DNA of 11,371 bases from Candidatus Bathyarchaeia archaeon (lineage in GTDB: Archaea > Thermoproteota > Bathyarchaeia > TCS64), in the NCBI GenBank assembly GCA_050014495.1, contig JBEKDF010000070.1:1-11371 (forward strand), read 5' to 3'. How positions within the stretch are numbered: position 1 is the first letter of the stretch; each line of letters starts with the position of its first letter. Positions 1 to 11,371 of the stretch are shown here, piece by piece. The position numbers were made by a program, and so were the translations under genes. Under the pieces are notes generated by a model. It did no database searches and had not been told where the DNA came from. It was given only the letters and a program-made list of their open reading frames with translations.

Positions 1-185
1 CTACTTCCCCTACAAGTGTCTACGAAATGAAGAGCCTCGTGTACCACACTGATATAGGTCTCCTCGATTGTGCAAGTTGACAATAGGTATGTGTTGAGGA
101 GAATGAGAAAATCACATTCTTTGTTCTTTAAATAAAGTTTATAGCGATAGGGTTGGTTCTCCTTAAATACTAATCTAACTCTCAT
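1..185 (-). CDS. Partial hypothetical protein with HExxH zinc-metallopeptidase-like motif (runs off left edge)
   Basis: Hand translation from ATG at 185 gives MRVRLVFKENQPYRYKLYLKNKECDFLILLNTYLLSTCTIEETYISVVHEALHFVDTCRGS, open to the edge. HEALH is preceded by a hydrophobic segment, as in zincins. Not in the supplied ORF track. Confidence 0.55.
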   Translation of the reverse strand, partial: MRVRLVFKENQPYRYKLYLKNKECDFLILLNTYLLSTCTIEETYISVVHEALHFVDTCRGS

Positions 186-210
186 GTTTTTTTATGTTAA
201 AGAATATGCT

Positions 211-223
211 TGTGCGCGCGCGC
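211..223. repeat. Alternating purine/pyrimidine tract TGT(GC)5
   Basis: TGTGCGCGCGCGC lies in an AT-rich divergent intergenic region and is followed by GCACGCG (225-231). Confidence 0.9.
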
Positions 224-230
224 CGCACGC

Positions 231-240
231 GATTATTTAG
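231..240 (+). promoter_or_regulatory. Putative archaeal TATA box for the P-type ATPase
   Basis: GATTATTTAG lies about 20-30 nt before the GTG start at 260. The same GATTATTTA string lies at a similar distance before the start at 9681. Confidence 0.4.
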
Positions 241-259
241 CCCGTAAGGTGGTAAAAAA

Positions 260-2818
260 GTGAGCGTTCCCGACACCGAGTCTGACCTGAGATACTGGTG
301 GACACAGCCACGTGAAAGGCTATTAGAAATTCTGAAAACAGACCAATCTAAAGGCTTAGCAAAAGATCGGATCCTTGAACAACGATCAATCTACGGCTCA
401 AACACCTTACAGGAATTGAAACCCACAGATATTCCGACACTCCTCATAAAGGGCATCAAGCAACCCATGATGATCCTCCTTATCACAATCGCCCTAGTGT
501 CACTCGCTTTCGGTGAACTGCTTGAGGCATCTGTGATGATCTTCGTAGTAGTCGCATACATCTCGGTTGAGTTCATCAACAAGCTGCGGACCGATCGGAC
601 GATGGCTCGCCTCAGAGAACTCACACAACCAACCACGAAGGTCATTAGGGATGGAGAACCGCAAGAGGTTCCCACGTCCGAGTTAGTTGTCGGTGACTTA
701 ATTATACTTACATCAGGAGTCAGGGTACCCGCTGACGCACGACTTATACAAGCAAGTGGACTCGTAGTGAACGAGGCGACATTGACCGGCGAGTCGCTTC
801 CAGTGACGAAGAACCCCGAAGTTGAACTCAGACCAGACACTGCTCTAATCGACAGGGTCAACAGCGTCTTCACGGGAACAATCATCCTCGACGGAGAGGG
901 AACAGCCATTGCTATGGCTGTCGGTCAGGGCAGCGAGTTCGGTAAAATCGCTAAGGAAGTAATGGAGACGAGGAAGCAGCAGACCCCACTCCAAGCTTCG
1001 ATGAGGCAACTATCTAAGAGTCTCGCAATTTTCGCGATAGTCGTCAGCCTCATTATCCCTTTAATCGGGCTACTGCGCGGCCTTGACTTGAAGCAAATGG
1101 TGTTGACCTGGCTGTCCCTGGCCTTCTTAATGGTCCCGGGTCAGCCCCCCATTATCATCACGATGGCTCTGGCCCTAGCCTCCTTCGAACTGGCCCGGAG
1201 AAACGTCGTTGTGAAGCGCCTCAGCGGAGCAGAGGGGTTAGGATCAGTCACTTCGATACTGACCGATAAGACTGGGACCTTAACCGAGAACCGGATGATT
1301 GTTGATAAAATTGTCACACCGAGAGGAGAGGAGGTTACGTCCTCAAATGTTGCTAACGAGACGGCCCAGAACCTCTACTTCTCTCTTCCCAAGTTCCGTA
1401 GTGACCCAACAGACAAAGCAGTTGGGGAAGCTCTAAGCATCAAGGTAATAGGAGAAGAGCCCACCTCAGTCGCGTTTGAGGGGTTCTCCGACGGGCACCC
1501 ATGACGCGTCATTAGTTTCGGTATAGAGGGTAATTACATTCATAGGGTAGCGGGTAAGCCCGAACTTTTAGTAGATTCATCAAATCTGGGAATAGGCGAG
1601 AAGGATCGACTCAGAGCCATAATCTACAGTGAAGGGTCTCTAGGTAAAAGAGTGGTAGCCTTCGGGACAATACGATCCCCCACAAGAGAAGTCAAAGCGC
1701 TCAAGAACATTGATCTTACGGCTCTTGCTGTTCTCAGCGATCACGTCCGCCCAGGAGTCAAAGAGGCCATCAGCGACCTGAAAGTTGCCGGGATATCGAC
1801 TATAATCGTGACGGGAGATCACCCTGTTACCACAGGATTCGTAGCCAACGAGATCGGGTTGAAAGGGGAGATTATCACCGGTGACAAGCTTGAGAATATG
1901 AGCGACTCGGAGGTTCTTGATTCGCTTAGGTCCGTGAGCATATTCGCGAGGGCGACTCCCTCACAGAAGCTCCGTTTGGTGAAGATCCTCCAATCAAGTG
2001 GAGTGGATGTAGGGGCGGTAGGTGACGGCGTCAACGACGCTCCCGCTATTAGGTCAGCTAACGTAGGTGTCGCTATGGGTGAAATAGGCACAGATCTGGC
2101 AAAGGAGACCGCGGACCTTGTGCTGACAGACGATAACTACGTGCATGTTCGCGACGCGGTCGCGATAGGAAGGAAAGCCATCGATAATTTCCGAAAGGGA
2201 TTAACATATTACCTCTCAGCTAAGGCAATTCTTCTCTCGATATTCCTGGTTCCACTCGCACTTGGGATCCCCTTCCCATTAGCCCCAATCCACATCATCG
2301 TGATCGAGTTGTTGATGGACTTGGCTTCCTCTACTATTTTCGTCACAGAGGCAGCCGAGCCCGATGTTCTGAAGAGGCATCCCTCTAGGATGAGCGAGTA
2401 TCTTCAGGGTCCAATATTGAAAAATATTCTGAGGAATGGGCTTCCACTCGCGGTTGGAATCATGCTCGTGTACTTCACGACGTTTTATGCGACCGGTGAC
2501 TTGGTCCTTTCGCAGACGGCTGTTTTAGTCACCTGGCTCCTTGGACACATATTACTGGCGCTCAACCTCAAACAGGAGACGACACCTCTTCTAAAACAGG
2601 GCATTACATCGAACAGATTTGGATTATTCTGGCTTATCGGGATGATATCTTTAACACTGTTTGTCACAAACGTCGCTTCTGTCTTTGCGTACTTTAAAAC
2701 CACTTTTATCCCAGTTGGGATTTGGCTTGAAATATTGATTGTGATTTTTGGCGCGACGTTTTGGATTGAACTCCTAAAATGGTTTAAACTGAGAAGCCAT
2801 AGAACATTTGTCCAATGA
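260..2818 (+). pseudogene. Cation-transporting P-type ATPase (P2-like architecture) interrupted by one in-frame TGA at 1502-1504; 852 codons if read through
   Basis: ORFs 260..1504 and 1652..2818 share a frame. The gap translates without further stops (RVISFGIEGNYIHRVAGKPELLVD...GKRVVAFG) and includes AGKPE (KGAPE equivalent) and GKRVVAF. Other motifs: TGES, DKTGTLT, TGD, ARATPSQK, GDGVNDAPA and multiple TM helices. Confidence 0.85.
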
Positions 2819-2973
2819 TTTCCACTGGTGTGGTGATGATTTTAAATTATGTAGAGAGGCCTGACTGTTAAGGGGGTCAAGCAGGTGAAGTCCTCTTTCC
2901 TCACGCCGTAATGACGATAGGACTAGTGCGAATGGGATTCATTCTCGTATATTTTCTGAGCCTCTTCTGGGGT

Positions 2974-3001
2974 GTGGGGCACCAACCCGCTTTTACTAGT
3001 A
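2974..3001 (+). repeat. 28-bp dispersed direct repeat, copy 1 (putative recombination site)
   Basis: GTGGGGCACCAACCCGCTTTTACTAGTA, lying between the convergent 3' ends of the ATPase and receiver genes. Confidence 0.92.
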
Positions 3002-3046
3002 AAGACTATCAAAAGTCCGAATAGGTTCATTTTTTTGAAGTTTAAA

Positions 3047-3457
3047 TTAAACGAATGGATGCATTTTAGTTGAAACAAGGCTTACTATCCGTTGAGCCAG
3101 CACGTTATAAACTGTTAAACTCGGCTCTTTCTCAATGATATCATCCACTCCAATCTGACGCGCACTCTTAGCCATACTCTCATCATCCAGAGCTGTGAAT
3201 AATATAAAGGGAATGTAATATCCCTCAGCTCTCAGCTTCTCAAATAGCTCAAGACCGCTCATCCGTGGCATAATATAGTTACTCACTAAGCAGTCGAAGT
3301 GCTTACCGTGGACTAACTCCAGTGCTTTCTCTCCGGAGTTAGCCTTCTCGAAGATGAGTGACTTATCTATTCCTCTAATAGCCGTCTCGATTAGTTCAAG
3401 CTGACACGGGTCGTCATCAACCAGCAGGACACGAATATTTGGGCTTGGTTGAATCAT
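3047..3457 (-). CDS. Stand-alone CheY-like receiver protein with Asn at the phospho-acceptor position
   Basis: Motifs VLLVDDD, FDCLVSNYIMPRMSG, IPFILFTA and DDIIEK. It aligns with the neighbouring kinase REC domain (FDCIVSDYQMPQMNG). Confidence 0.92.
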   Translation of the reverse strand: MIQPSPNIRVLLVDDDPCQLELIETAIRGIDKSLIFEKANSGEKALELVHGKHFDCLVSNYIMPRMSGLELFEKLRAEGYYIPFILFTALDDESMAKSARQIGVDDIIEKEPSLTVYNVLAQRIVSLVSTKMHPFV

Positions 3458-3529
3458 TGGCTAATGTCAGGGAACGGCGGAATTTAACAATAGAACTTTC
3501 TTCACAAGATGCTAAATGGTATTTTGCAC

Positions 3530-5674
3530 CTAGACCTTACTCTTTGTAAGTGGAAGCCTCATAATGAAGGTGGTCCCGGCGCCCACTTTGGACTCAAAGT
3601 CTATTGAGCCGCCCATTGCCTCAACAGCCCTCCTGCAATAGGTAAGCCCCAACCCCATACCACCAGACTTGGTGGTATAGAGAGGGGAGAAGATTCGCGC
3701 CCTCGACGCCTCAGAGATGCCGACACCTGTGTCACTAACACTTATTACAAGGTCTGTGACCCTCATCTCCACCATAACTGAGAGCCTCCCGCCCTTGGGC
3801 ATCGCCTCAACCCCATTCCTCACGAGGTTATCGATGACCCTGTGAATAATATCTGGATCAATGAGGATCGAATCTAGGCCATCCCCAATCGAAGTCTCGA
3901 CCTCCACATTACTCGGAATCGGGTTACCCTCTAAGACACGTTTGATCAACTTACCCAGATCAGATTTGATTGGCTGGGGCACGATCTGGCGGGTGCTCGA
4001 CCTCCAATCAGCGATCATCTTCAGCGACCTGACGGCGTTCTCCTCGACCATCTGAAGCATTCGGGGCGTGAGGCTCGGGTCCTGCTTGATCATGTTAACC
4101 GATTGCACAATCATCCCCAGAGGTCCGCGGAGATCATGTGCAACCGTGGCACCCATCTGCTCAACCGCTGTCACCACCTCGGCTCTCTGAAGCGCCTCTT
4201 GCAAACGCCTACGTCTCGTTATATCCCTCGAGATGACTCCGATTCCTGAGCCGACGCGGAAGACAGAATATAAAATAAAGATATCCTTGGAGACAAAACT
4301 GACACCCTCCAATTGCATCGACTCCCCGGTCCGGAGCACTTTATTGAAGGCTGCATAAAGATCAGTAGCTTCTATCCCCGGCAAGAGCTCCGTAACACCC
4401 CTATCAATGAAGTCGATCTTAGCCTTCCCAGCCGTGGATTTCATGAGAAGCCACCCGAGTTCAACTCTATTCAAGTCAATGAGGCGAAGATCTGAATCGT
4501 AAATTGCGAAGCCCTCATCTGTCGATTCCATGAAGGCTCGAAGCCGCTCCTCACTCAAGCGAAGCTTCGCGGCCCTCTCATCAACCATCCCCTCCAGCCT
4601 GTTCGCATATTCTTGAGTGATATCGTTGGCTACCCTAAGCTCCTCCTGCGTAGCCATTAACTCCTCATTAACAGATGCTAATTCCAAGTTAGTTGCCTGA
4701 AGTTCCTCCTCTGCCTTTTTCCTAGCCTTACGTTCTCGAATCGATAGGACTCCTAAGCTAATGTCTTCTGCAAGTTGCTTGAGGAGCTCCACTTCCTCGT
4801 TTGACCAAGGATTGGTTTCGCGTGAGTAGATGGAGATGGCCCCAAAGGGCTTACCCGACTCAGTTAATGGGTAGACTATGGAGGACGCGTACCCTCTCTT
4901 GAGGGCTTCCTCGCGCCATGGCTCGAACTTCGGGTCCGTGAGCATATTGCTGCAGATTGAAACCTCCCCCGTTCTGATCGCGGTCCCTGTTGGGCCTCGA
5001 CCACGCTCCGTGTCGGCCCACGTGATCCTCAACCCGGCTATGTATCCCTCGTCGAAACCCGCGTAGGCGACTGGTCTGACAGTCTTAACCTCATCGTTCT
5101 CGGCGAAGCCCACCCAGACTAGGTGGTAATCGGTGTCAGCGATAATATTGTTGCAGACCTCGTTGAGGTAGGAGACCTCATCGGTAGTTCTCACGAGGGC
5201 TCTGTTGCTGTCGCTGAGTGCTTTCAGGGAGCTGTTGAGGCGTTTCGCCTTCTGCTCCGCCTTGTTTCTTTGAACCGAGTGTCTGATCCTTCTAGCGAGT
5301 AGCTGGTAGTGTGCTATGGATTCCTCTTTCCTGACGTAGTCATCAGCCCCAGCAGCGAATGCAGCGGAGGCGATGTCTGCGCTCCCGTGACCGGTATATA
5401 TGATGAAGGGGATTGTGCTCGTTTTCCTGACTTCGGCGCAGAGCTGAATCCCATTCATCTGGGGCATCTGGTAATCAGATACGATGCAGTCGAAGTGGTG
5501 ATCTTTAAGGAGTTTCAGGGCCACGTTTGGAATGATTGTCGATGTGATTTTGAGTGATGGATCGATCGATTCTAGGTTGAGTGTCGTTAGATCGGTTTGG
5601 GCTTCTTCGTCGTCGATGAACAGTATGTTTATGATATCTACGTCGGTGGTTGTTTGATGTGACATGAAACCCAC
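3530..5674 (-). CDS. Sensor histidine kinase: REC - GAF - coiled coil - PAS-like - HisKA - HATPase_c
   Basis: N-terminal REC (IDDE, SDYQMP, YTG, VRK); GAF (VWVGF...GRGPTGTAIRTG...GAISIYS); H-box VAHDLRGPL; N-box NLVRNGVEAM; G1 DTGVGI; F IFSPLYTTK; G2 GMGLGL. The true start could be the ATG at 5665. Confidence 0.95.
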   Translation of the reverse strand: MGFMSHQTTTDVDIINILFIDDEEAQTDLTTLNLESIDPSLKITSTIIPNVALKLLKDHHFDCIVSDYQMPQMNGIQLCAEVRKTSTIPFIIYTGHGSADIASAAFAAGADDYVRKEESIAHYQLLARRIRHSVQRNKAEQKAKRLNSSLKALSDSNRALVRTTDEVSYLNEVCNNIIADTDYHLVWVGFAENDEVKTVRPVAYAGFDEGYIAGLRITWADTERGRGPTGTAIRTGEVSICSNMLTDPKFEPWREEALKRGYASSIVYPLTESGKPFGAISIYSRETNPWSNEEVELLKQLAEDISLGVLSIRERKARKKAEEELQATNLELASVNEELMATQEELRVANDITQEYANRLEGMVDERAAKLRLSEERLRAFMESTDEGFAIYDSDLRLIDLNRVELGWLLMKSTAGKAKIDFIDRGVTELLPGIEATDLYAAFNKVLRTGESMQLEGVSFVSKDIFILYSVFRVGSGIGVISRDITRRRRLQEALQRAEVVTAVEQMGATVAHDLRGPLGMIVQSVNMIKQDPSLTPRMLQMVEENAVRSLKMIADWRSSTRQIVPQPIKSDLGKLIKRVLEGNPIPSNVEVETSIGDGLDSILIDPDIIHRVIDNLVRNGVEAMPKGGRLSVMVEMRVTDLVISVSDTGVGISEASRARIFSPLYTTKSGGMGLGLTYCRRAVEAMGGSIDFESKVGAGTTFIMRLPLTKSKV

Positions 5675-5886
5675 GGAGTGGACTGATTATAGATGCGAGG
5701 AGATAATTAATCCTAACTATTTCACACGTGCGGGAGATTCATAGTTGGCGACAATCTAATGCTCCATAACTCAAGTAGATTCCTTCCGTATGGATGGCGA
5801 TTTTCTATCCATCATAAGTATTATTTAGGAATCATTCTAAAGGAACTGGTGTTATTTCTAGAGCCATATGTGTCTATATGGTAAAG

Positions 5887-5914
5887 GTGGGGCACCAACC
5901 CGTTATTAATAGTA
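5887..5914 (+). repeat. 28-bp dispersed direct repeat, copy 2 (putative recombination site)
   Basis: GTGGGGCACCAACCCGTTATTAATAGTA, lying between two co-oriented minus-strand genes. Confidence 0.92.
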
Positions 5915-6007
5915 AAATTGTCTTATCTGATAGTGAATTGGGGTATTTATCTAGAATTTTTATTCCAAAAGGATTGAATTAGCCATAATACAACTGGCCG
6001 GTTCACG

Positions 6008-6226
6008 CTAAGCGATTGCTGATTTATTTGGTGTACTCTCGATTTTCTTCCTTGGTTTCCAAAGAATTCCAATAAACGCCAATACTATCCCTACGATCAG
6101 TATTCCAAGAAGAGGATCTGAGAAGCCTCTTAGAATAAGCAGAACAGCACCTAATATCGTTAGGATGCATCCCATCAGGATAAGTCTCAATTTCATACTA
6201 TTCATACTTTTCACAGCCACTCCCAA
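6008..6226 (-). CDS. Small two-TM membrane protein, last gene of the ABC operon
   Basis: Two hydrophobic helices followed by a basic tail (KPRKK). It begins 18 nt after the permease stop. The start is uncertain and may be an internal ATG. Confidence 0.7.
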   Translation of the reverse strand: MGVAVKSMNSMKLRLILMGCILTILGAVLLILRGFSDPLLGILIVGIVLAFIGILWKPRKKIESTPNKSAIA

Positions 6227-6244
6227 TTCCGTTGAATCAAGTCA

Positions 6245-6988
6245 CTACTTCCATTTTGTCAGTATCTCCTCTCTTCGGAAAGTAGTCTTAGCGACATAAA
6301 GCAGAATCGCGTCAACCACTAACATGATGCCGGCTATGATGAGTAGGTCGTTTGCGACACCGAGCTGTACTATGCCGATTTCACCCGCGACGTAGACCCC
6401 TCCGAAGGGGAGTATCAAGAGGATACCAATCTGTTGCGCGACGCGAACATCACTCACCCTAGAAGAGACGATGACGTTCCACTCGACACTCATTATGGTT
6501 GCGAGAGGCACCATGAGGAAGAGTATGATGCCAGTGTTCCAGTTTGGGAAAAAGTTGTAGCCCAATGTGTCATATGTGACTAGATCCATGAGACCCATGA
6601 AGATCGCGGATCCTCCCAAGATGGCCACCATAGGCGGCAGAAATGCCGAGATGCCCTTTCCGAGCAGGATTTCGCCATCTGTAGTTGGTGTCGCCAGGAG
6701 TGGTTCGAGACTCTTCTCGACTTTCTCGCCTACGATGCTGTACGAGGCGAGGGTTGTCGGGATCAGGCCAGCGAGGATGAGGTAGAAGAATGTGAAAGCT
6801 GGGAGAAGCGTCGTGAGGACATTCGCTGGGATTCCGCTTGCGTTCCTGTGCTCGATAAAATAGATCAAGACAGGGAAAAGAATCGAGACGATTAGGGGGA
6901 CGATGATAATTGAGTAAATAATGTTCTTCTTCTTGAGAAAGACCTTGAAGTCCTTAGAGGCGACTATCCACGATTTCGAGAGTCTCAT
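6245..6988 (-). CDS. ABC-2 type transporter permease
   Basis: About six TM segments and the ABC-2 motif SIVGEKVEKSLEPLLATP...EILLGK. It overlaps the ATPase gene by 4 nt (ATGA). Confidence 0.92.
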   Translation of the reverse strand: MRLSKSWIVASKDFKVFLKKKNIIYSIIIVPLIVSILFPVLIYFIEHRNASGIPANVLTTLLPAFTFFYLILAGLIPTTLASYSIVGEKVEKSLEPLLATPTTDGEILLGKGISAFLPPMVAILGGSAIFMGLMDLVTYDTLGYNFFPNWNTGIILFLMVPLATIMSVEWNVIVSSRVSDVRVAQQIGILLILPFGGVYVAGEIGIVQLGVANDLLIIAGIMLVVDAILLYVAKTTFRREEILTKWK

Positions 6989-7905
6989 GTTGTCTGCCTC
7001 ACAAGCCTCAGGTAGGCGTCCTCGAAAGTTGAACCGACTACGGTTACCGTTTGAACGCCGCCGCCGGCTCGGACTATCACGTCAACGATCATTTGATTCT
7101 CTTTCTCTGGATTTGTTACGTTAATGATCAGCTTGTTGCCGTCAACGGCGATGTCCCCAAGCGGCAACCTCTTCACAGCGGCCATAATAGTGTCGTTCAT
7201 CTGATCTAGCTGGATCTCCGTCTTTCTGCCACCCACAGACCTTTCGAGCTCCTTCGGAGTGCCCACAGCCATCAGTTTGGTGTTCAGAATTGCTATCCTG
7301 TCGCAGATCCTCTGGGCCTCATCGAGGTTGTGGGTGTTCAGAAAGATGGTTCTCTTCTCCTTCTTGAGGTCGAGGATGAAGTCCCTGACCGTCTTCGATG
7401 CCTCCGGGTCTAGGCTAGCCGTCGGCTCGTCCATGATGAGTACCTGAGGGTCGTGTACAAGTGAGCGCGCTATCGCGAGTTTCTGCCTCATTCCCTTCGA
7501 GAACGTGCCCGCCGCGATGTTCCTCTTCTCCCAGAGGCCAAGCATCGTTAGCAGTCGTTGTATGTTTTTCCTTCTTTGCTCCTCCGTGCAGTCGTAGAGC
7601 TTACCGTAAAAGTCGAGGTTGTCGTAAGCACTGAGTTCGTCGTAGAGTCCCACGTTGTCTGGCACGTACCCGATTAGCTTCCTAATCTTCAGGGAGTCCA
7701 CCTCTTTGCCGACGTCGTAACCGGCGATTCTTGCCTCGCCGCTGGTCTTGGATATGAGGCAGCATAGCATCCTCACCGTGGTTGTCTTCCCCGCTCCATT
7801 GGGTCCGAGGAAGCCGAATACTTCGCCGTCGTTAACGTGCAGGGTGAGGTTGTCTACAGCGGTTAGGTCGCCGAATTTTTTTGTTAAGTTTTCTGTGTCA
7901 ATCAA
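6985..7905 (-). CDS. ABC transporter ATP-binding protein (ABC-2/DrrA-like exporter)
   Basis: Walker A GPNGAGKTT, signature FSKGMRQK, Walker B LIMDEP, H-loop THN. TTG start. Confidence 0.96.
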   Translation of the reverse strand: MIDTENLTKKFGDLTAVDNLTLHVNDGEVFGFLGPNGAGKTTTVRMLCCLISKTSGEARIAGYDVGKEVDSLKIRKLIGYVPDNVGLYDELSAYDNLDFYGKLYDCTEEQRRKNIQRLLTMLGLWEKRNIAAGTFSKGMRQKLAIARSLVHDPQVLIMDEPTASLDPEASKTVRDFILDLKKEKRTIFLNTHNLDEAQRICDRIAILNTKLMAVGTPKELERSVGGRKTEIQLDQMNDTIMAAVKRLPLGDIAVDGNKLIINVTNPEKENQMIVDVIVRAGGGVQTVTVVGSTFEDAYLRLVRQTT

Positions 7906-7978
7906 TTAGGTTCCCTCTTATAGAATCCAATCGGCAGACGGTATCCGCCTAACAAGATATGTAATCCCCAACATAGCA

Positions 7979-7989
7979 GCGCGCGCACG
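7979..7989. repeat. (GC)4 tract at the DUF1801/ABC junction
   Basis: GCGCGCGCACG lies about 10 nt beyond the DUF1801 stop codon. Confidence 0.8.
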
Positions 7990-7997
7990 GTCCAAGT

Positions 7998-8411
7998 CTA
8001 CCGTTTCCCTTTGCTCTCGAGATTCAAAGCTACGGCTTCACGAATGAGTTTCTTAAACGCAGCCTCATTGATCTCGTCGCCTTCATGGATGTCGATGGCG
8101 CGCCTGACGGTCCCAGGCTGGTTGAACAGGTGAGAGGGGTCCTCCAGCGAAGCACCTTTAAAGAAAGTGAGCTTGACCACACTCTTGTAGGTCTCGCCCG
8201 TGCAGATGCCTCCGTTGTGGGACCAGACTGGGATTCCAGGTGACGTAGGCTTCACCCACTTCCACTCTTCTATACTCTCCGGGTCCGCCTCCTTGATGAG
8301 CCTGCGCACTCTTTCAAGCGTCTCGCCCCGCCAATCGCTCAGTTCCTTGACTCTCTTGCTGATCAACTCAGACGCAGGTTCTTTTGATTCTGTCCTTTCT
8401 CTTGCACTCAT
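7998..8411 (-). CDS. DUF1801 (YdhG-like) protein
   Basis: Family-typical sequence WRGETL.RVR.LIKEADP...EEWKW...PVWSH.G.ICTGETYK..VKLTF.KGASL.DP..LFN...RRAIDIHEG. Confidence 0.88.
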   Translation of the reverse strand: MSARERTESKEPASELISKRVKELSDWRGETLERVRRLIKEADPESIEEWKWVKPTSPGIPVWSHNGGICTGETYKSVVKLTFFKGASLEDPSHLFNQPGTVRRAIDIHEGDEINEAAFKKLIREAVALNLESKGKR

Positions 8412-8439
8412 ATTATCACATTGAAATTAAAGTTTCATC

Positions 8440-8449
8440 TTTATATATA
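8440..8449 (-). promoter_or_regulatory. Putative TATA box for the DUF1801/ABC unit
   Basis: The minus strand reads CGAAC-TATATATAAA about 30-38 nt upstream of ATG 8411, and a GTGA SD-like motif lies just before the ATG. Confidence 0.6.
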
Positions 8450-8467
8450 GTTCGGCAAAGGTTGGCG

Positions 8468-8495
8468 GTGGGGCACCAACCCGATATTACTAGTA
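8468..8495 (+). repeat. 28-bp dispersed direct repeat, copy 3 (putative recombination site)
   Basis: GTGGGGCACCAACCCGATATTACTAGTA, lying between divergent genes. Confidence 0.92.
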
Positions 8496-8663
8496 GTTGG
8501 ATATTCTTGTAGAGCTACAATAAAGTTTAATGAGTCTAAACCCTGAACGAACAGAATTTAAAATCAGATATATTTGAGACACTTTTCTTCGCTCAGTGCA
8601 AGCTAATGCATGTGCTATAATAAATTCAATAACTTTTATTTATTCGGGCAAAGAATGTAAAAT

Positions 8664-9320
8664 ATGATGTTACACTTTCAGGAAAAACTTGAGGAAGCAA
8701 GATATTTCCTTCAAAAACTTGAAGAAACTCCTCAATATAATGTGCATGATAGAGAGTTTATGTATCTTCTCAGCGCTTTTCTTACTTCTTGGCGAAGTGT
8801 AACTGATTTGATATTATACGATTATGCGGAAATATTTAGTCTCGGTCTTTCTAGAGAAGATGATATAAGTCTTCATGATTTTGGACTAATAGCACGAGTT
8901 ACAAATAACTCTCAAGCACAGCGATTTCTTACGTGGTTTAATCAACAAGTAGGGATTCTATCAAACAATCCTCTCTGGAGGAAGCGTAACATAATAGTTC
9001 ATAGAGGTTATCCCCCTACAATGCGAGTATATTCATTGTATCTATCAGGATCAATAGCATTATCAGCATCAGTAGCATTATCAGCTTCGTTAACTGTAAA
9101 TCAACCCGCAGGTTCCGGTGGCTCATCAGGAATACAGCAACCTATCAGCGCTCAATCTGTCCCGACGACAAACGTTCCAGTAGTAAACTCACCTGCAAGC
9201 GCAGTCCCTCAAATCAGGTTTGTTGATCTACCAGAACAAGGTGTAATTGATAGCTGTAGACAAGCAATTGCTCTGATGCAGGACTTTGTCAATTCAGCGT
9301 TACAACAATTCGGTAGTTAG
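8664..9320 (+). CDS. Hypothetical protein, putative HEPN-like RNase (RxxxxH)
   Basis: AT-rich 218-aa ORF with a helical N-terminus (EKLEEARYFL...LSAFLTSWRSV) and RNIIVH at aa 108-113. The family assignment is inferred from the motif only. Confidence 0.6.
   Translation: MMLHFQEKLEEARYFLQKLEETPQYNVHDREFMYLLSAFLTSWRSVTDLILYDYAEIFSLGLSREDDISLHDFGLIARVTNNSQAQRFLTWFNQQVGILSNNPLWRKRNIIVHRGYPPTMRVYSLYLSGSIALSASVALSASLTVNQPAGSGGSSGIQQPISAQSVPTTNVPVVNSPASAVPQIRFVDLPEQGVIDSCRQAIALMQDFVNSALQQFGS
9051..9086 (+). repeat. In-frame 18-bp tandem duplication (SIALSA/SVALSA)
   Basis: TCAATAGCATTATCAGCA followed by TCAGTAGCATTATCAGCT, 16/18 identical. Confidence 0.8.
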
Positions 9321-9680
9321 AAAAAGTAAGAACGCATGCGCTTGTCTTACGTTATTATATTGACGCCTTCTTTGGCCTTGGAAAATTCACCATTAGGCTA
9401 TAAGCAGTAATTTGAAGCGTTCTAAATTTAACCGAAACCATAATTACCTTTTTCTCTTTATTTCTATTTGGAGAATAGTTTGAGTCATCAATGTTTTCTC
9501 GTCACAGATTCTTTGATGATGACGAGTATAATGAGTGTGAAAATGAGGGTGGATCGCCAGCGATCACACCCTACGACAACACGCTTTTGCGCACGTTTTC
9601 TAGACGTAGGTTGCTAACCCTTTGCCGCAATAATAGATTTGCGCGAGATTATTTAAGATTGAACCACAGCTTATCCTTTA

Positions 9681-10406
9681 ATGACGCTTCCTGATAATGA
9701 CCCGGCGAAATGGCAATACCAAGAACATACGGCAGTGAAGCATCAGATTCTCGATGGCTACTTACATACTTGGATTTCAATATTGGGTGGATCAAACCTA
9801 GAGCTAGGATACATCGACGGGTTCGCGGGAAGAGGGGTCTATCAGGATGGGTCGATAGGCTCCCCTATAATTGCTATGGATACTGGTCAAAATCAAATCA
9901 GTAAGATAAATCGAAAGCCCTATGGAATGAAGAAGTTTCGATGCTTCTTTGTAGAAAAGAATGTGGATAACTATTTTTGCCTAAAAGAGCAGGTTGAAAG
10001 CCGGAAGTCAACTTGTCCAGATGTGATACCTGACATACGAAATGGAGTTTTTGAAGAACACGCCACTGAATTTATTGAAGTATCTAAGAAAATACCTACA
10101 TTGTTTTTCATAGACCCCTTTGGCTGGGAAGTTCCATTTGAGATTATCAAGGGAATATTAGATAACCTCCGTACTGAGATTCTATTCACCTTCATGGTCT
10201 ACGACATCAACAGGTTTCTAGGGAGTACCGCACATCAAGCAAGTCTGAATAAACTCTACGGAAGCTCAGTCTGGAAAGATTGTCTGGATAGTGAAGATAG
10301 AGAAAGTTGCCTAGTAAATCACTATCTAGATTCGATAAGAAAGGCGCGCGCGCGAAACTATTCTGTGAAAAGTTCTTGCCCACAACTAACTCGGCAGACG
10401 GCGTGA
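9681..10406 (+). pseudogene. tcmP: Three-Cys-motif partner protein (TcmP-like, SAM-dependent methyltransferase fold), apparently 3'-truncated at about 10343
   Basis: Motifs HTAVKHQIL..YL..W..ILG, YIDGFAGRG, GSP, FFVEK, LFFIDPFG and EILFTFM. Family-like sequence ends at YLDSIRK, exactly at a (GC)5G tract. The last ~20 codons run into the hydrolase gene and look non-homologous. Confidence 0.75.
10344..10354. repeat. (GC)5G tract at the tcmP/hydrolase junction
   Basis: GCGCGCGCGCG; the sequence is AT-rich to the left and more balanced to the right. Confidence 0.9.
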
Positions 10407-11143
10407 AGATAAGCTATAAAAAAGAAGGTAGATCCGGACAAAACGTTATTCTTATCCACGGCTGGTGCTGCGACGGAACATACTGGAGGAAAACTATCCC
10501 TAACCTCTCACAGGACCACAAAGTCTACATTATAGATTTGGCTGGACACGGCAACTCTGGGACGAACAGGCGAGCTTGGACTATAGACAACTACGGGGAG
10601 GATGTGAAGGCGTTGGCAGATAAAGAGAAACTCAGCGACGTCACCCTCGTCGGACACTCCATGGGAGGAGACGTTGCTCTTGCTGCCGCCCAGCTACTAA
10701 GCGACCGAGTAAAGGGAGTGATCCTCGTAGACACCTACCACAACATCACGATAATGCCCGAGAAGAAAATACAGGAGATGTTGGCGCCTCTAAAGGAAAA
10801 CTTCCACAACAACGCAAAGCTGTTTGTCTATGATATGTTCACGAAGGATGCTGATCCGAAGTTGAAAGAGGATATCGCAGTCGATATGTCAAGTGAGGAT
10901 GCATCGATAGCGATCCCAAGCGTCGAAGCAACAATCAGGTACAACGAGGGTGACGCTTTTGACAAAATGAATGTTCCTGTCAGGTGCATCAACTGCGACA
11001 TGTCTCCATCTGACTACGACTCAGCGAGGGAGCACCTGAGAGACTTCGGCGAGACTACAATGAAAGGCCTTGGCCACTTTCTGATGCTTGAGAACCCTGA
11101 GGAATTTAATGCTATTCTCAGAGATACAATAGCTAGCCTTTAG
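10376..11143 (+). CDS. Alpha/beta-fold hydrolase
   Basis: Oxyanion HGW, IDLAGHG.S, nucleophile elbow GHSMGG and catalytic His in GHFLMLE.P. Start reassigned to the in-frame TTG at 10376 (MPTTNSADGVKISY, with GTGA upstream), because the track's start at 10307 lies inside tcmP. Confidence 0.9.
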   Translation: MPTTNSADGVKISYKKEGRSGQNVILIHGWCCDGTYWRKTIPNLSQDHKVYIIDLAGHGNSGTNRRAWTIDNYGEDVKALADKEKLSDVTLVGHSMGGDVALAAAQLLSDRVKGVILVDTYHNITIMPEKKIQEMLAPLKENFHNNAKLFVYDMFTKDADPKLKEDIAVDMSSEDASIAIPSVEATIRYNEGDAFDKMNVPVRCINCDMSPSDYDSAREHLRDFGETTMKGLGHFLMLENPEEFNAILRDTIASL

Positions 11144-11226
11144 ACCTGCGCGCTCATATAGTAGATCGCCGCCACCGTCACGCTTGCCGCCGTCACCAAT
11201 ACCCCAATCGTCTGCGCATCGACCAT
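11140..11226 (-). pseudogene. 5' fragment of a membrane-anchored hypothetical protein gene, cut at GCGCGC
   Basis: Translates MVDAQTIGVLVTAASVTVAAIYYM-SAQV*, with a GTGA SD-like motif before the ATG. From recall it resembles the N-terminal TM helix of a longer archaeal hypothetical family. It stops just after GCGCGC (11148-11153). Confidence 0.6.
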
Positions 11227-11266
11227 AGAATCACTGAAGAAGAATCAGATGGAAGTGAGGATAAGG

Positions 11267-11371
11267 CTATTCACTCTTGAACAACGATGGGAAAGCCCTC
11301 TCCCAGCTCCCCTTCTCATAGTAAATCATGTTCCCTCTATAGCTAGAATCTACTCTGTACATCATTTTCGC
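11267..11371 (-). CDS. Possible 3' end of a gene entering from the right edge
   Basis: The frame is open from the edge to TAG at 11267: AKMMYRVDSSYRGNMIYYEKGSWERAFPSLFKSE*. No recognisable motif. Confidence 0.35.
   Translation of the reverse strand, partial: AKMMYRVDSSYRGNMIYYEKGSWERAFPSLFKSE

Follow-up and report, generated by a model that had tools for sequence, protein, structure and literature searches.

In an 11,371-nt stretch of a Candidatus Bathyarchaeia contig (JBEKDF010000070.1, positions 1 to 11,371; assembly GCA_050014495.1), hereafter the window, an intact alpha/beta hydrolase gene lies between two truncated genes, with a short (GC)n run at each truncation. This arrangement raises the question of whether such runs are sites at which DNA recombines, or marks left behind when broken DNA is joined. 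The initial annotation favored the former: (GC)n would act as a recombination joint, by way of microhomology, Z-DNA fragility or a GCGC-targeting enzyme, splicing a minimal one-gene unit between two broken genes.

Both tracts were verified at the distances originally described, GCGCGCGCGCG 21 nt ahead of the hydrolase start and GCGCGC 4 nt past its stop (Table 1), and the truncation of both neighbors was likewise borne out. On the left, the match to the TcmP profile TIGR04474 spans residues 15-222 of the three-Cys-motif partner, residue 222 coinciding with the tract, and the four closest TcmP homologues (369-375 aa) extend beyond the truncation point; the tcmP frame stays open across the tract as far as the stop codon at 10406. 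On the right, the minus-strand stub ends 1 nt from the tract, having 24 codons compared with mostly ~165-197 aa for its paralogues among the matches listed, one of which corresponds to Pfam DUF4760. The hydrolase, whose TAG stop ends at 11143, has the same length as its homologues (255 aa). At the thresholds used, neither hydrolase nor TcmP orthologues were detected in 40 relatives. Hydrolase homologues adjoin DUF4760-type genes together with their upstream repeat, and the contig of the window itself leads into an array of such genes. The hydrolase locus as such is unremarkable and serves as a clear instance of the scar phenomenon described below.

Table 1. Coordinates of features in the window (Strand "." = none assigned).
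Feature	Position	Strand	Remarks
(GC)n tract, 10 bp, upstream of P-type ATPase gene	214..223	.	
(GC)n tract, 8 bp, 11 nt beyond DUF1801 gene stop	7979..7986	.	
tcmP (three-Cys-motif partner), 5' part	9681..10343	+	cut at ~codon 222 of ~370
Left (GC)n run, putative junction filler, 11 bp, GCGCGCGCGCG	10344..10354	.	not in intact hydrolase locus L028
Native hydrolase upstream DNA, 21 nt kept, remainder lost	10355..10375	+	comparison with L028
alpha/beta hydrolase, intact, 255 aa, TTG start at 10376	10376..11143	+	GHSMG and GHF motifs
Right (GC)n run, putative junction filler, GCGCGC, 6 bp	11148..11153	.	L028 has its first G only
DUF4760-type gene, first 24 codons (MVDAQTIG...YYM)	11155..11226	-	outermost of a series of tandem paralogues that continues past the window
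CTTATCCTCACTTCCA-type repeat (minus strand), precedes DUF4760-type paralogues	11228..11272	-	

Several other features of the window and its genome (G000) were recorded. Genes of the DUF4760 type (~180 aa) form tandem arrays with one conserved repeat before each gene on contigs C24, C50, C53, C72, C75 and others; this repeat has 197 motif matches in G000, also flanks the hydrolase homologues, and may serve as a common promoter or mark the edge of a cassette. A 30-nt repeat (GTGGGGCACCAACCC...) lies between gene modules at positions 2974-3003, 5887-5916 and 8468-8497, with another copy on contig C31. The P-type ATPase gene (260-2818) is divided into two ORFs by an in-frame stop at 1502-1504.

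G000 is a 92-contig assembly, and the joins were checked with contigs, not raw reads. The left join is bridged by contigs in four of four sequencing runs, one of which may be the source of the assembly, and the right join in two of four; the left join was also bridged in one of four further runs. In these four lower-share sequencing runs, which gave patchy cover, no alternative allele was seen at either join. Metagenome contigs L026 and L027 contain both joins, and L034 contains the right one. Assembly or amplification chimerism at short palindromes, raised as an alternative in the initial annotation and a natural suspicion for a 92-contig assembly examined through contigs only, is therefore very unlikely, given the identical joins across several sequencing runs and metagenome contigs, the same signature in the single-contig genomes G021 and G106, and a filler that is found in neither parent.

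Comparison with intact alleles suggests that the runs were added. The 793 nt between the two tracts align without gaps and with 90% identity to metagenome contig L028, which carries an intact hydrolase locus; the match begins at the second base past the left tract and stops 1 nt short of the right tract, and L028 has a GC run at neither position. DUF4760 paralogues read ATT, TTC or ATG following their YYM-type codons, and no close intact tcmP allele was found at the DNA level. Since no such run exists in the closest intact alleles of either the hydrolase or the DUF4760 gene, those of the window are likely to be added filler rather than native microhomology or cassette sites. In L029, a separate 9-bp GC run is located 14 nt past the stop of a hydrolase homologue, a position different from that in the window.

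The original proposal of a recombination joint consequently stands insofar as the tracts are real joints, but not insofar as they would be native microhomology or fragile or enzyme-cut sites. Splicing of an intact one-gene unit between native (GC)n sites would agree with the presence of tracts at both truncations, and at other places in G000 a tract is found on each side of several short paralogue fragments (~100-230 bp). However, the runs are missing from intact alleles, the hydrolase unit has lost its upstream region, and hydrolase homologues adjoin DUF4760-type genes like the right neighbor, so that we consider such splicing very improbable. A minimal unit is not needed to explain the locus, since the hydrolase lost its upstream DNA beyond 21 nt and two separate joins suffice. 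As homologues of the hydrolase adjoin DUF4760-type genes and the contig enters an array of these, two joins, each removing DNA, are the simplest local history, and the hydrolase is probably their survivor; a single capture event could alternatively have produced the bracketed gene.

The runs are abundant throughout G000. Its sequence contains GCGCGCGC 512 times, compared with 22-30 occurrences expected under Markov models, and 459 (GC)n runs of at least 8 bp. Maximal run lengths are 8, 9, 10 and at least 11 bp in 192, 144, 111 and 12 cases, respectively, with a sharp fall past 10 bp (111 runs of 10 bp vs 5 of 11 bp), and GC-first, even-length palindromes are favored. Long ORF cores hold 15 of the 459 runs, compared with 63% of 4-mers, and several of these 15 mark homology ends. 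The genome-wide enrichment at breaks, suggested for testing at the outset, was found: of 417 paralogue homology-end pairs, 34 have a run of at least 8 bp (null mean 4.3, maximum 9), AG runs of at least 8 bp being mildly raised too in this test (8 vs null 1.4). In 33 of 37 paralogue pairs of G000, a count that leaves out five pairs with the tract common to both, the intact allele shares only 0-2 nt of the run. A two-sided match was obtained for 25 of 758 tracts, comprising 20 shared or natural runs and five collinear deletions of 44-455 nt, in which the deleted part has no GC run longer than 5 bp and, in two of the five, one side has 4 nt of native match; none of the 25 is a pure insertion footprint. 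The filler occurs in deletions, in small in-gene patches and in joins of unrelated DNA, with little native match (mostly 0-2 bases per side) and a length limit, mostly of 8-10 bp.

Across the class, 24 of 301 genomes, distributed among seven families and with close kin that have none, are scar-rich, as classified by raw nine-mer counts per genome (at least 100 nine-mer matches). One of them, G106, is a single contig of 1.98 Mb with 508 nine-mer matches, which has no transposase-profile match at E<=0.01, no DDE_Tnp_1 domain and IS-end patterns at control level; the scar signature is present here without a detectable insertion sequence (IS). In the 1.02 of 1.98 Mb covered, the run lengths fall off after 10 bp, reaching 12-15, no 11-mer occurs more than twice among 916 flanks, and the run is missing from 12 of 17 one-sided paralogue matches but shared by the other five. 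At one G106 site, ~6 nt are replaced by a 10-nt tract. In-frame (GC)n patches (L138, L140 and L141) encode Ala-Arg within otherwise intact genes, and in an aldo/keto reductase such a run opens a 14-residue insertion. A Pfam domain is cut at a run in three of 40 frames of G106; the blastx break test gave 3/20, vs 0-3 in control bins, that is no enrichment, and the protein-level break tests in G106 and G217, underpowered or negative, gave 0/20 and 0/4, respectively. Flank bias depends on the host, being AT in G000 and TA in G106, G119, G217 and G137, and IS ends show the same bias.

Instead of being polymerised on the ends, the filler might be taken up or copied from a short pre-existing (GC)n oligonucleotide or RNA template by which the broken ends are splinted. 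A fixed template would agree with the sharp drop past 10 bp and with the bias towards GC-first, even-length palindromes, but reverse transcriptase-type RVT_1 domains were found in none of the five genomes searched and the runs of G106 reach lengths of up to 12-15. We judge this origin to be improbable.

Another possible source is an IS5/IS1182-like element, whose ends would carry or duplicate GCGC; the runs would then persist after excision, resection and either rejoining or fragment capture, the element itself later being lost. The DDE transposase encoded by the element of G000 has affinities to IS5 and IS1182 but scores under the curated cut-offs of both families (94.7 vs 270 bits for IS1182 and 84 vs 140 for IS5_4); within its triad, D129 and D219 are invariant and E273 is near-invariant. 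Terminal inverted repeats were found in 32 full copies from many genomes, and 63 of their 64 ends adjoin a GC run measuring 4-10 bp, scar-poor genomes included. IS-end patterns abut GCGC 55 times in G000 vs once in the control; since this pattern missed the G119 subfamily, G106 was also searched with a second one, for which G119 served as positive control. The nearest IS analogue is IS1272 (IS5/IS1182 families; itself of the IS1182 family), which shares a DUF772 and DDE_Tnp_1 transposase and terminal inverted repeats and replaces a palindromic target (PMC5678879). Given a 4-bp duplication, the implied empty site measures 8-10 bp in 22 of the 32 copies and at least 11 bp in eight; no empty allele of a filled site was found, and the outer flanks gave no informative match for collinearity. 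The IS ends of G119 are mostly 6+6, which, minus the 4-bp duplication, would yield its commonest scar, 8 bp. In G193, the IS has 8+8 flanks and no nine-mer occurs elsewhere, which favors an origin of the adjoining runs from the element and argues against the simple 4-bp model. With at most seven candidates scored per genome, the transposase profile is enriched in scar-rich genomes (14 of 24 vs 69 of 277 others; p=0.001, kin not being independent).

Against this origin, neither element nor remnant was found in 10 of the 24 scar-rich genomes (at most seven candidates scored in each), although loss after activity is possible, and the scar-rich single contig of G106 shows no trace of it. Conversely, the IS-rich genomes G200, G283 and G273 have just 16, 18 and 2 nine-mer matches, respectively. 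The GCGC that a footprint needs is missing from the intact alleles, none of the 25 two-sided matches is a collinear insertion footprint, and the deleted intervals have no GC target; on these grounds the runs do not fit an IS footprint. The element explains the IS-adjacent runs but went undetected in many scar-rich genomes, and we regard it as an unlikely general source of the filler. Among related observations, non-autonomous elements of ~420-460 bp with IS ends are present in G000 (C79:7080-7543, containing a small helix-turn-helix-like ORF, and C34:18636-19053), and G143, a single-contig genome without transposase match, has one relic-like IS end (C1:107213-107232), which implies that the element can vanish nearly without trace.

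On balance, we consider it probable, though far from certain, that the runs are filler written during break-repair end joining, independently of insertion sequences; the route, with its alternating GC filler, is likely one that is undescribed so far, having a primase as candidate writer. According to this model, a primase-type enzyme would extend broken ends with alternating G and C. Because a (GC)n repeat is its own complement, the tails on any two ends could pair and then be ligated, and the length limit of the runs would reflect primase-like counting. In the window, the hydrolase would have survived between two joins, one cutting tcmP and the other the DUF4760 gene, and the IS5/IS1182-like element would be a later tenant inserting into ready-made scars. 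The writer may be PriSL, the replicative primase, or else a small PriS-like protein that is mobile and acts transiently.

By analogy, a primase as writer fits established primase activities. Primases halt at unit length, 7-9 nt in several cases (PMC8076596), and PriSL of Saccharolobus shows terminal transfer, with ends annealed by 2-4 G:C pairs (PMC12019639; PMC3333859). The microhomology-mediated joining attributed to PriSL(X) (MMEJ/PADT) is likewise archaeal, involves extension of ends by a primase, short G:C pairing and indels (PMC12019639, PMC3333859), and shares with the present case non-templated G/C additions and 0-4 nt of microhomology. It differs in its products, which in vivo are described there as mostly 1-2 bp indels with C additions (PMC12019639), whereas the filler found here, by a search for longer runs, consists of 6-11 bp of alternating GC. 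PriS and PriL are encoded here, but also in scar-free genomes, so that their presence is not discriminating, and scars are patchy among genomes that all encode PriSL.

None of the enzyme families tested as predictors (Ku, LigD, PriS, PriL, PolB, PolX, PolY and RVT_1) tracks the scars. Ku/LigD non-homologous end joining (NHEJ) needs little homology between the ends and is able to insert bases without a template, and in G000 the LigD-polymerase and Ku genes lie side by side (C3:65798-67394). Ku was detected in 9 of 24 scar-rich and 64 of 277 other genomes (73/301 of the class); in contrast to what such a route would imply, it was not found in 15 of the 24 scar-rich genomes, including the single-contig G021 and G106, and scar-free G001 and G010 encode it. 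Of five genomes searched for each, LigD polymerase and Ku were each found in three (for Ku including scar-free G001), PolX, PolB and PriL in all five, and PolY in none; PolB and PolX, like PriS and PriL, are also encoded in scar-free genomes.

A small PriS-like family, picked out after the fact, is a weak lead as candidate writer. It comprises 274 members of ~265 aa, the named ones coming from Bathyarchaeota and Brockarchaeota, which retain the DxD, SGxxGFH and later D motifs and whose predicted fold (pLDDT 91) resembles archaeal PriS, with 1g71 as best match. The family occurs in 5 of 24 scar-rich genomes (three of them profile seeds) vs 10 of 277 others, counts that leave out three matches to a separate 440-aa family. 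In scar-poor genomes, a run of at least 8 bp lies at four of seven PriS-like loci vs none of 13 methyltransferase loci; several copies are cut at a (GC)n run, and the family is often broken. The intact copy of G000 (C53:7049-7861; L172 2550-3362) is located close to a diverged tyrosine recombinase on a contig that carries no runs, and further fragments are present on contigs C13, C22 and C24. The family was found neither in the 1.02 of 1.98 Mb of G106 searched nor in viral contigs. A second PriS-like family of ~440 aa, with a C-terminal extension, is represented in G000 (L056 718-2034, on C20), G013, G007 and G236. Tentatively, and as a scenario that we hold to be doubtful, tailing with a counted, self-complementary (GC)n stretch may make any broken end sticky in Bathyarchaeia, a small, mobile, PriL-free PriS-like enzyme may spread this route from lineage to lineage, often breaking its own gene, and the IS may have specialised on the scars as safe landing sites.

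Among other known systems, an integron-like cassette site was rejected, both neighbors being cut mid-gene and the site missing from the intact hydrolase locus. HIP1, the highly iterated palindrome of cyanobacteria, occurs far above chance genome-wide, and the present runs are similarly a short palindrome well over chance, but unlike HIP1 they avoid genes (15/459 in long ORF cores) and mark breaks, which led us to set this candidate aside. Filler between resected ends is also known from TdT N-additions in V(D)J joining and from Pol-theta templated insertions; in those cases the inserted sequence is either random or templated by neighboring DNA, whereas the filler here is a fixed alternating sequence. 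In its operation it resembles primase or NHEJ end joining, and it does not belong with Ku/LigD joins, IS footprints, cassette sites or HIP1. No description of such GC scars was found in the literature searched, mostly without subscription papers and supplements; a description of the element's target might exist in IS catalogues or supplementary tables.

Little is known of template-free end joining in archaea other than Sulfolobales. Here, in an abundant uncultured lineage, hundreds of past breaks are recorded by a constant, legible scar, and sequence data thus allow deletions, captures and gene fusions to be mapped. The reading that we prefer, filler written during end joining, predicts an enzyme that would write alternating G and C without a template, and the scars also suggest a transposon that targets the scars of repair.
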